From the IMG/VR virus record IMGVR_UViG_3300028888_003076: DNA of 12,647 nt. One strand, written 5' to 3'. The stretch's first letter is position 1. Each line of letters opens with the position of its first letter. A program made the translations under genes and the position numbers. The notes beneath the pieces were generated by a model that saw only the letters and a program-made list of their open reading frames with translations, searched no databases and was not told the origin of the DNA. This stretch comes from a virus. This document shows, piece by piece, positions 5,323-6,880 of this stretch.

Positions 5323-5408
5323 TATGAAAATCTGTATATTTTTGTTAAAATAAAATATATTAAAATTTTACAACTTTTTAGGCAAGTTTAAATGCCTATC
5401 TTTTTTGG

Positions 5409-5433
5409 TATGTCAAAGACCTTTAAAGACATA
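5409..5433. promoter_or_regulatory. Composite palindrome tatgtcAAAGACCTTTAAAGgacata, a candidate operator for the adjacent RHH regulator
   Basis: Inverted arms tatgtc/gacata flank an internal cTTTAAAg palindrome. The element lies 13 nt upstream of the ATG at 5446. Confidence 0.35.
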
Positions 5434-5445
5434 CCTAAATCCGCA

Positions 5446-5643
5446 ATGGAAAGGATTGAAATATTTTTGGAAGATAAGAAAGTGCATTAGATATCGGTGA
5501 AATTAACTACGGAAGAGTATGGCTGGTTAGTGCGATATTGTGATAAACACGATGTATCTATGGCTAGTATAATTAGAAAAGGTTTCCGTATGTATAGAAC
5601 CGCAGTAAGTAAAAATAGTAAAACTACTAACAAATAGTAGTAA
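5446..5643 (+). CDS. Ribbon-helix-helix (CopG/Arc/MetJ-like) DNA-binding protein of about 65 aa (alternative starts 5392 or 5410). It has one internal TAG and ends ...NK-TAG-TAG-TAA.
   Basis: The motif ISVKLTTEEYGWLVRYCDKHDVSMASIIRKGF has the RHH beta-strand plus helix A signature. The beta-strand gets its N-terminal context only by reading through the TAG at 5488-5490. The ORF ends with TAG TAG TAA at 5635-5643. Confidence 0.5.
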
Positions 5644-5665
5644 AGGAAGAGAGAACAAATAACAA

Positions 5666-5839
5666 ATGAAACAAAAGATTATATTTTCAAAACAAATTAT
5701 GTTAGGTCTATTGGAAAAAGGATTTCGTCCAATAGAGTCATTCCCGAATCCTACTAATCCAAAGTATTTGGCTTGGGCTTTTGAAGAAAGTGATGCTCTT
5801 GAAGAAGCATTTGCGGAAGTCCTTGCGCAAAGGGGGTAA
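5666..5839 (+). CDS. Hypothetical 57-aa protein (MKQKIIFSKQIMLGLLEKGFRPIESFPNPTNPKYLAWAFEESDALEEAFAEVLAQRG)
   Basis: The RBS aaggaagagag precedes ATG 5666. The stop is TAA at 5837-5839. The gene sits between the RHH gene and the initiator gene. Confidence 0.5.
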   Translation: MKQKIIFSKQIMLGLLEKGFRPIESFPNPTNPKYLAWAFEESDALEEAFAEVLAQRG

Positions 5840-5844
5840 TAATC

Positions 5845-6279
5845 TTGGCAACGACTTATAGAAATTCAAAGATTATTTATCCTGGATATGAGGCTTTAAA
5901 AGATACGACGCATCATTATTATAGATTAAGTGCGGCAGCATTTGAGAAAGTTGTGAAAGAGTGCAAGCCTTTTGAAGTTTATTTATGGATTTATTGTCAT
6001 AGGATTAAAGATAGTTGGGCTTTTAGTCCATAGGCTTTAATTGAGGAATTTGGGGGTAGTGATAAAAGTTGGCGTGAAGCTAGATAGGGATTAGAGAATA
6101 AGGGATATCTCGTTTAGATTTCTGGTAATGGATATAGATTTGATGAAGTGCCGCAGACTTATGAAAAGGATAAGTTGAAAGTCATATTGAGTTATGAGGT
6201 TGATAAAGATGCTGAATGGATAGAAAAAGATGTCGTGCGGCTTAGCGATGGAGAGTTAAGACGAGTTTAGACATTTTAA
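5845..6279 (+). CDS. Winged-helix replication initiator / replisome-organizer-like protein of about 144 aa, with a TTG start and four in-frame TAG codons
   Basis: The strong RBS AAGGGGG (5830-5836) lies 8 nt before TTG 5845. The motif LWIYCHRIKDSWAFSP[TAG]ALIEEFGGSDKSWREAR[TAG]GLENKGYLV[TAG]ISGNGYRF is a wHTH of the RepA / phage replisome-organizer N-terminal type. The frame continues through the TAGs at 6031, 6085, 6115 and 6268 to TAA at 6277-6279. The iteron array begins 50 bp downstream. Track ORF 5845..6033 is its N-terminal fragment. Confidence 0.55.
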
Positions 6280-6329
6280 TAAATTACCATTTTATGGTAA
6301 TTTATTAAAAAGGGAGCCGGTCGTAAATA

Positions 6330-6744
6330 CGGTAATTTTTACCGTTTTATACGAACGGAAAAGCGGTAATTTTTACCGAAACTGCGACCGTAAATGCGGT
6401 AAATTTTACCGAAAGTTAATATTAAAAGTGGTAAATTTTACCGCATTTACGAACGGAAAAACGGTAAATTTTACCGAATTAAATGAATCTTCCTAAATTT
6501 TTATGATAAAAGTATTAATTCGGTAAATTTTACCGAATTTGCGACCGTAAAAGCGGTAATTTTTACCGTTTTAGCATTTTTATTTAGATTCGGTAAATTT
6601 TACCGAATTTACACTCGGAAAAGCGGTAATTTTTACCGAATTTACGACCGGAAAAACGGTAAAATTTACCGAAAGTTGGTCTGGAATTAGTAGATGCGGT
6701 CGTTGGAACAGGCATTTTCACCAAGATTCGGTAAATTTTTCCGG
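6330..6744. repeat. Iteron array and candidate replication origin: 10 copies plus 1 degenerate copy of the 15-bp palindrome CGGTAA(T/A)TTTTACCG
   Basis: Copies lie at 6330-6344, 6364-6378, 6397-6411, 6429-6443, 6462-6476, 6521-6535, 6554-6568, 6591-6605, 6624-6638 and 6657-6671, with a degenerate copy at 6729-6744. Spacing is mostly 33-34 bp, about three helical turns. The linker is conserved as aatttacgaccggaaaag. Confidence 0.8.
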
Positions 6745-6880
6745 AGAAATATAATATATATATTTTTATATAGATCTATTATAATATATATTTTTAATTA
6801 TATAATATATGGTATATAATAATATATATAATAGATAGTAATATAAATCTATAATTATAAATCATATTTGTGAATGGGGA
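6745..6880. repeat. AT-rich segment of (t)ataatatat-like repeats, a candidate DNA-unwinding element of the origin
   Basis: The segment is over 90% A+T, with 5 or more degenerate copies of ataatatata immediately following the iterons. Confidence 0.55.

Follow-up and report, generated by a model that had tools for sequence, protein, structure and literature searches.

Layout of the locus

The window analyzed here, a stretch of viral DNA of 12,647 nucleotides (IMG/VR record IMGVR_UViG_3300028888_003076), carries a compact module in which a plus-strand operon is followed by an array of palindromes and a block of AT-rich sequence (Table 1). The operon encodes a ribbon-helix-helix (RHH)-like protein, a conserved protein of 57 residues, and a winged-helix protein of 144 residues. 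The array begins 50 bp past the stop codon of the winged-helix gene (6277-6279) and ends at a conserved box that leads into the AT block, beyond which lie a G-rich stretch and a terminator-like hairpin. Comparison with related loci strongly supports the winged-helix protein as the predicted binder of the palindromes, and the locus is probably a lambda-type, iteron-driven replication origin with a minimal initiator.

The window matches a longer viral contig, IMGVR_UViG_3300028805_000039 (239,565 bp), at 152.7-159.1 kb, and related contigs come from samples of the Ga0247608-611 and Ga0310695 series. It comes from a huge phage of the rumen in which TAG, a stop codon in the standard code, stands for an amino acid. 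A megablast of the whole window against annotated phages returned no close DNA relatives, and a narrow-alignment search with the locus returned only the window's own IMG/VR contig. The comparisons below draw on the loci L001, L002, L004, L009, and L010, the last two from other huge-phage contigs, and on L011 and L012, which come from small temperate phages.

Table 1. Features of the module and its immediate surroundings, in order of position.
Feature	Position	Strand	Basis
Intergenic region, 88.6% AT, separating the operon from divergent genes on the minus strand (to 5259); presumed promoter region	5260-5391		composition
RHH-like gene, 83 codons if TAG is sense	5392-5643	+	PHROG 876 'transcriptional repressor', E 1.1e-5
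Conserved ORF of 57 residues, IFSKxIMxxLLEKGFRPIxxFPNPTNPxF/YxxWAFE, no TAG	5666-5839	+	homologues
Winged-helix gene, 144 codons, TTG start (ATG in L001), four in-frame TAGs, ends in Phe	5845-6279	+	homologues, model
Perfect palindrome AATAAATTACCAT-TTT-ATGGTAATTTATT just past the stop codon	6279-6307		sequence, alignment
Ten strong 15-bp dyads CGGTAAWTTTTACCG, in two blocks of five	6330-6476 and 6521-6671		pattern count
Central spacer, 44 bp, inverted iterons on both sides	6477-6520		inverted in L001 (L001 1172-1215)
Eleventh copy, right arm degenerate (CGGTAAATTTTTCCG), fused to the conserved box	6729-6743		pattern count, alignment
Conserved box GAGAAATATAATATA directly next to the last palindrome, with TATAAT inside	6744-6758	+	comparison of loci
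AT-rich block, 123 bp, 93.5% AT, overlapping AT palindromes around TAGATCTA; candidate unwinding element	6747-6869		composition
G-rich, C-poor stretch (G 41, C 6), G-runs, two copies of GGnTTTTrAAAAATGrAATGAAAAT	6876-6985	+	composition
Bidirectional intrinsic-terminator-like hairpin, 10-bp stem, A-run before, T-run after	6988-7015		fold and sequence

A regular array of palindromes

Eleven copies of CGGTAAWTTTTACCG with at most one mismatch lie within 6330-6743, where dinucleotide-preserving shuffles lead us to expect 0.09, and none of 200 shuffles attained 22 strand-matches to the motif. The copies start at 6330, 6364, 6397, 6429, 6462, 6521, 6554, 6591, 6624, 6657, and 6729, which gives copy-to-copy distances of 34, 33, 32, 33, 59, 33, 37, 33, 33, and 72 bp. 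Each copy is built from a 5-bp arm (CGGTA), five A/T bases, and a complementary 5-bp arm, a layout that places the two half-sites one helical turn apart. A preliminary description of this DNA had reported ten such copies, starting 50 bp after the gene and suited to binding by a dimer, and this agrees with the ten strong copies, to which the degenerate eleventh is added, the position, and the 5+5+5 build found here. Its three-turn phasing holds less well: the spacing is indeed mostly 32-34 bp, but a period of 33 bp corresponds to 3.1 helical turns, so that neighboring sites are not strictly in phase. The AT-rich repeats that it placed behind the array are likewise present, with a length of 123 bp instead of the roughly 135 bp given.

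Between the palindromes runs a linker motif, wTTwCGAmCGkAAA, which is itself a rough palindrome with halves that resemble iteron halves. It had been described behind every copy but follows only 6 of the 10. Although their dyads differ, the arrays of L002, L009, and L010 retain a GCG-centered motif at 6-10 bp behind each dyad. The 57-residue ORF upstream, proposed in the same description, is real: in L001, L002, L009, and L010, its homologues immediately precede the winged-helix gene, and this protein of about 60 residues is far more conserved than the winged-helix protein. That the conserved small protein might read the conserved linker motif is a reasonable guess, offered tentatively from the pattern of conservation. 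A candidate family for it, DUF5659, reached only E 0.13 in one homologue and is not claimed. The heptamer CGACCGG occurs five times in the window against 0.2 expected, at the array edges (6317, minus strand, and 6645) and three times outside, at 7802, 8280, and 8502, where genes are few and strong promoters occur.

The closest relatives keep the array with small changes. Twelve copies are present in L001 and in L004, where one copy is mutated. The central spacer of the window, taken as its reverse complement, is alike the L001 spacer at about 39 of 44 positions by eye, and L004 has the orientation of the window. Both L001 and L004 have lost part of the perfect palindrome at 6279-6307, which, being unconserved, is probably dispensable. 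A search of the window against Rfam at E up to 1 yielded only a tRNA, plus chance-level matches in the array. A genome scan for the palindrome pair gave a sole match, by chance, inside a histidine-kinase gene. Two unrelated phage contigs carry three to four direct or dyad repeats with the same GGTAAWTTTTACC core (L006 596-830, L007 975-1430); the repeats in L006 are followed by an AT-rich stretch, and the winged-helix gene of the family is adjacent in neither.

TAG as a sense codon in the operon

In-frame TAGs are confined to five adjacent genes at 3433-6279, which contain 2, 4, 2, 3, and 4 of them, respectively, and all 19 other ORFs of the window, a 780-codon gene among them, contain none. 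The segment is thus a TAG-recoded island between flanks compatible with the standard code. The winged-helix gene, proposed earlier at 5845-6279, is not open in the standard code, in which the ORF from 5845 ends at 6033; with four in-frame TAGs, it is a gene only if TAG is sense. Relatives preserve its reading frame across the TAGs, and TAG encodes the Q of YLVQISGN at the same position in the window, in L001, and in the 43%-identical L002 gene. In the 5.2-kb circular pRGF00006, a TAG likewise stands where the family's NQ motif has its conserved Gln, and a Pfam match to the formate/nitrite-transporter (FNT) family (PF01226, 2e-20) runs across the TAGs of the gene at 3890-4591. Such TAGs in conserved genes, aligned with Gln, are what is found in TAG-reassigned (code 15-type) phage genes, and UAG-to-Gln reassignment has been described in gut phages (PMC10879173, PMC10607447). 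The public gene calls of L001, L002, L010, and L011 are untranslatable under table 11, so that TAG was evidently taken as sense there as well.

The RHH gene has one TAG at codon 33, just before a β-strand (ISVKLT), and two more before its TAA stop. Glutamine is written as TAG three times and as CAG never in this gene, and four times against once in the winged-helix gene. Because nearly all their Gln codons are TAG, the two are not early proteins in a standard-code host. This suggests that the module would be expressed only after the code switch. The RHH protein has no Pfam match and no PDB sequence match. Its place is taken by a NikA-like/DUF6290 RHH gene in L011 and L012, and it is absent from L009 and L010, where the array is kept. 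Upstream of it, the AT-rich intergenic region holds promoter-like hexamer pairs on both strands.

The winged-helix protein and its family

Translated with TAG as Gln, the 144-residue protein matches PHROG 270 'replication initiation protein' (1.3e-4) and PHROG 186 'DnaD-like helicase loader' (2e-4). Only two relatives came out of a word-indexed protein search, and 931 (E up to 1e-3) when a profile was run against 1.8 billion representatives. Family members are 100-320 residues long and have the N-terminal ~110 residues in common. In a set of 56 members, 35 match PHROG 270, 32 match PHROG 186, 33 match HTH_36, 9 match the 'O-like' PHROG 678, and 3 match the Pfam family DnaD_N. The protein ends in Phe in 136 of 263 members (52%) of any length, typically as hydrophobic-x-Phe (WDF, LGF, LPF, IPF). 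These ends resemble the C-terminal tips through which SSB and T7 gp2.5 and gp4 dock.

An AlphaFold model built from 82 sequences (predicted local distance difference test, pLDDT, 83) has an N-terminal strand, a winged helix at residues 30-101, and a small C-terminal region of helix and strand. In the model, the protein has a single winged-helix domain and ends about 40 residues past the wing. An initial AF2 model from two sequences was poor (pLDDT 56.6), and Foldseek against the PDB gave nothing below E 0.05. The family profile found nothing significant among PDB sequences (best 1tbx, E 0.04), and a tblastn search of one small-phage member against annotated phages found no match.

Recognition helix and palindrome vary together

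The recognition helix of the winged-helix protein is SDKSWREARQGL. Across relatives of 30-43% identity, the gene is followed in the same way by a palindrome array, the box, and an AT stretch or hairpin, while the arms of the palindromes change. L009 has 13-14 copies of TTCTGAAAAACMGAA (TTCTG arms) and L010 has 11-12 copies of GTGGAWTTTTTCCAC (GTGGA arms), in both cases behind the ~60-residue ORF and the winged-helix gene and with a period of 31-33 bp. In L011 and L012, the order is RHH gene, winged-helix gene, and two to three dyads at 22-23 bp (TATTCAAAATGAATA, TATTC arms, and TAGTAAATTTTACTA, TAGTA arms), and pRGF00006 has three GTGTA-type dyads. All these sites are 5+5+5 dyads. Conversely, protein P0002, which is 43% identical overall to the window protein, is identical through helix and wing (GGSDKSWRxARxxLxxKGYLVQISGN), and its locus keeps the CGGTAA palindrome.

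A total of 35 loci came from a metagenome scan whose only criterion was a pair of CGGTAAWWWTTACCG copies separated by 8-30 bp. A winged-helix ORF with the helix [STC][DE]KxxRxxxxxL lies 115-272 nt from the palindromes in 21 of these loci; this helix motif is nearly absent elsewhere (30 occurrences in ~260,000 residues of six-frame ORFs). The nine distinct lineages with CGGTAA arms are all of the S-[D/E]-K-x-x-R type (SDKSWREA, SDKSWRSA, SDKSWRNA, SDKG[LIV]R, SDKTYR, SEKTVR, SEKTAR, TEKTAR, and CEKTVR). Eight family members with other arms lack the motif and have KKDSYY, SKSSYD, CKKSYD, TKSTYE, and similar sequences in its place. These pairings yield a predicted recognition code in which S-[D/E]-K-x-x-R would read CGGTA. 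Binding of the iterons by the protein is predicted from this co-variation of recognition helix and palindrome arms.

A conserved box, an AT block, and a G-rich strand

In the window, L001, L004, L009, L010, L011, and L012, the best match to the box in each locus (0-2 mismatches) stands directly after the last palindrome. The box sequence GAGAAATATAAYATA is shared across these loci although their palindromes differ, and a box that stays constant while the dyads vary points to a constraint from something other than the variable winged helix. It may be a start or melting site, a promoter, or the site of a conserved partner, for example. Between the window and L001, the AT block that follows is conserved less well than the array; in L009, L010, L011, and L012, the box is followed by a short AT stretch and then by a long hairpin.

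The G-rich feature recurs across divergent huge-phage relatives (L001 ~1612-1745, L009 ~4990-5160, L010 ~5040-5230) as two to four copies of a ~26-bp unit ending in AAAATGAAATGAAAAT. The unit found twice in the window has three copies in L001, and L009 and L010 have similar G-runs with GAAATGAAAA-type repeats. The stretch could be prone to R-loops or quadruplexes, or could be a second set of protein sites.

A candidate origin of lambda type

Among known systems, the module is closest in layout to ori lambda, which lies within gene O and comprises four 18-bp iterons and a 38-bp AT-rich region (PMC3349717). As there, a winged-helix domain, possibly related to the N-terminal one of O, goes with dyad iterons, and a region of high AT content adjoins the last iteron. 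A palindrome after the AT stretch of the relatives adds to the likeness, and so do the longer O-like proteins of L003, L051, and L026, which share the palindrome and the recognition-helix motif. Four lineages that combine palindrome and helix have such longer proteins (235-322 residues), and there the palindromes lie inside the coding sequence just after the winged-helix domain. Intragenic palindromes of this kind occur in the O-like or HTH_36 genes of L003/L046, L051, L026, and L005/L024, and also in L035.

In three of these four lineages, the longer gene sits in a replication module. In L003, the O-like protein (PHROG 678, 5e-10) is followed by a DnaB_C helicase, and in L051 the HTH_36 protein is followed by DnaB (4e-48). 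L026 has RecT, the HTH_36 protein (4e-8), an IstB/DnaC-like ATPase (4e-10), and an SF2 helicase. The short family aligns with the winged-helix domain of L003 in hhalign (E 0.003), and the iterons of L003 begin near residue 107, where the short proteins end. The short gene with its array thus resembles an O-type gene truncated at the border between domains; the short protein appears to correspond to the N-terminal domain of O, with the putative origin immediately downstream of the stop codon. In L011 and L012, the RHH and winged-helix pair lies between integrase/regulator genes and terminase, a slot that replication genes normally occupy.

We propose that the 144-residue protein would bind as dimers to the eleven dyads, its SDKSWR helix reading CGGTA arms that lie one helical turn apart across the A/T tract. 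The 33-bp lattice of bound dimers, together with A-tracts, would then wrap the DNA and stress the box and the AT block, and the latter would melt. The short C-terminal tail, with its Phe end in about half of the family, could recruit a component of the replisome that is encoded elsewhere.

The differences from lambda are also substantial, and several observations weigh against an origin. The array lies after the gene and not within it, so that the preliminary description's origin beside a Rep gene stands as a layout that mirrors ori lambda, and its textbook Rep does not: the window protein is a binding domain with a short tail. It lacks the C-terminal domain of lambda O that binds the helicase loader and has no match to Pfam Phage_rep_O or to any other Pfam family, and its single-protein matches to initiator families are weak (E ~1e-4). 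No helicase, loader, or primase gene (P, DnaC, or DnaB-like) was found next to it or anywhere in the 12.6-kb window. GC skew, which had been put forward as a check on the origin, is negative on both flanks across the window and positive only across the plus-strand island 3600-7200; it tracks the gene strand and gives no sign of a replication switch point at the array. There are no DnaA boxes near the array, and the only match in the window, against 2.2 expected, lies at 11214. Translation of the protein only after the code switch, with its four TAGs against one CAG, is odd for a primary initiator.

pRGF00006 is a further point on this side. It is 5228 bp long (L016, HG796773.1) and combines a standard-code part, with a complete Rep3 initiator (7.5e-36) and a resolvase, with a recoded part in which an HNH-like gene and the winged-helix gene are followed by the dyads and an AT stretch resembling the box. 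Having its own Rep3, it carries the module as an extra and not as its sole replicon, and since the recoded part contains TAG, that part can be translated only in a TAG-suppressing cell. The missing nearby helicase, the skew without a switch at the array, the TAG-coded genes, and this Rep3 leave room for an operator, a late or secondary origin, or a brake on initiation. A more detailed proposal holds that the module is a portable origin gated by the code switch, acting as a late second origin in the huge phage and for replication during the recoded state in small temperate phages and pRGF00006. In it, the replisome would be recruited by the Phe-tipped tail, and synthesis would be primed at the box, AT block, and G-rich strand by way of transcription and an R-loop. 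We regard this combination as improbable.

Other origin types fit less closely. PHROG 186 (32 of 56 members) and DnaD_N (3 of 56) point toward DnaD and Bacillus DnaB, whose DDBH1 winged-helix fold with an N-terminal extension is found here. DDBH2 is absent, however, and the C-terminus consists only of a helix and short strands in ~40 residues, with no Pfam family there. The N-terminal domain of DnaD serves oligomerization and not sequence-specific binding, whereas here the palindrome co-varies with the recognition helix. Unlike Rep3/RepA initiators, the protein has one winged-helix domain in place of WH1 plus WH2, the sites are palindromes and not direct repeats, and DnaA boxes are missing; Rep3, including Rep3_N and Rep3_C, has no Pfam matches in the window protein or its family. 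The origin of SaPI elements lies directly 3' of the initiator gene with short iterons and an AT-rich stretch, and its Rep is a helicase with its own specificity domain, with iterons that flank the AT region on both sides. R-loop origins (T4 oriF and ori(uvsY), ColE1, mitochondrial) have a promoter-like box, an unwinding element, and a G-rich non-template strand and no iteron array. The box, AT block, and G-rich strand of the module share these traits, a likeness that we treat as a lead only and that would propose a G-rich strand favoring a persistent RNA-DNA hybrid.

The module differs from the lambda-type iteron origin in its Phe-tipped minimal initiator, the position outside the gene, the large arrays of huge phages (here 11 sites at 33 bp versus four iterons with short spacers), the shared box, and the gating by TAG of recoded genes. 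Origins of lambda type inside an O gene and those that follow a short gene for a binding domain seem to represent a single system in two forms. To our knowledge, no origin has been experimentally defined for Lak-like or other uncultured huge phages; the module offers a concrete candidate with a predicted binder, a recognition code, and natural specificity variants for swaps. If it is an origin, stop-codon recoding would be tied to the control of DNA replication, besides late structural and lysis genes.

Alternative explanations

The array could instead be a large operator, with the winged-helix protein, alone or together with the RHH protein, acting as a transcription regulator. By occupying the last palindrome, the protein would then control a rightward promoter whose -10 element is the TATAAT of the box, driving a G-rich transcript of ~260 nt that ends at the 6988-7015 terminator, and replication would be absent or indirect. 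The box always abuts the last palindrome, so that a bound dimer would cover the -35/spacer region, and the G-rich stretch and terminator are kept in L001, L009, and L010. Promoter-like matches in the region number 15 against 11.3 in shuffles, which makes a promoter possible with no clear excess. A promoter would need far fewer than eleven to fourteen sites, however, and the strong promoters of this DNA have the form TTGACW-N15-TGATATAAT, whereas the box has neither the TG nor a -35 element. The G-rich RNA has no significant fold (z -1.2), and small-phage relatives keep the box without the G-rich stretch. Moreover, the same pair of helix and palindrome occurs within bona fide O-like initiator genes beside DnaB/DnaC-like genes. 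We consider the operator unlikely.

A second possibility starts from these same O-like genes. As the protein equals the N-terminal domain of initiators that recognize the same palindrome, it could be an O-type domain that, having no recruiting domain, occupies or handcuffs the iterons late as a competitor or copy-number brake, here or in competing elements. Its synthesis only after the code switch and the separate Rep3 of pRGF00006 would suit such a role. No full-length O-like gene of this specificity was found in the window or in syntenic relatives, so that there is nothing obvious to brake, and the conserved Phe tip together with the conserved box and AT block beside the array points to an active role at the site. 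This brake is quite unlikely in our view.

Lastly, the array might be a centromere-like or genome-handling site for partition, condensation, or packaging recognition, coated late by a small DNA-binding protein. Arrays of ~10 short repeats bound by small RHH or helix-turn-helix proteins are typical of plasmid centromeres. The RHH gene at the head of the operon, expression that TAG gating would place late, at the time of packaging, and the position of the L011/L012 module 2-3 kb upstream of the terminase gene all agree with this. The RHH gene is missing from L009 and L010 despite their arrays, however, and the protein matches initiator families and no small-terminase or ParB/ParR family. We judge such a site very unlikely. 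Two specific forms of it were rejected: a partition system because the module in the window, L009, L010, L011, and L012 has no NTPase gene of ParA, ParM, or TubZ type next to it, and a small terminase because of the lack of family matches and because members of 105-115 residues have no space for an oligomerization domain.

Other features of the window

Four perfect extended -10 promoters of the form given above, where none is expected, lie at 7971-7999 (minus), 8246-8274 (minus), 8713-8741 (plus), and 11963-11991 (minus). Three of them fall within 7712-9060, where neither code gives a convincing ORF; the set is suggestive of short non-coding RNAs and of a sigma-70/sigma-A type of host RNA polymerase. 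Just upstream of the 8713 promoter, at 8611-8665, are tandem TTAGCGATTTAGCG(T)... units with a 24-bp period (two copies, 92% match). On the minus strand, a long nested hairpin (7150-7290; -35.6 kcal/mol, z -3.5) lies just 3' of a 130-residue gene (7319-7711). L009 and L010 have long stems of different sequence at this place, and Rfam gave no match. For a possible structured RNA at 7118-7320, a consensus structure from four relatives was unsupported, the alignment being too divergent.

Within the recoded island, the plus-strand gene at 3890-4591 encodes an FNT-like membrane protein with four in-frame TAGs, and its 3' end overlaps a convergent Cys-rich ORF (4446-4838). L010 has an FNT-family gene at the same position by Pfam, and L009 has a 210-residue hydrophobic ORF there. 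The minus-strand gene at 912-3254 encodes the 780-residue protein, which has the shoulder and repeat domains of the major vault protein (PF11978, 7e-19; PF17795, 1e-8). In tblastn against annotated phages, it has matches (~40% identity) only in the uncultured 462-735 kb phages LR756500/1/3. Also on the minus strand are a DEDD exonuclease-like gene (11024-11728; PHROG 20187, 7e-26; PHROG 192 'DNA polymerase exonuclease subunit', 3e-8) and a tRNA-Glu(TTC) at 12114-12190.

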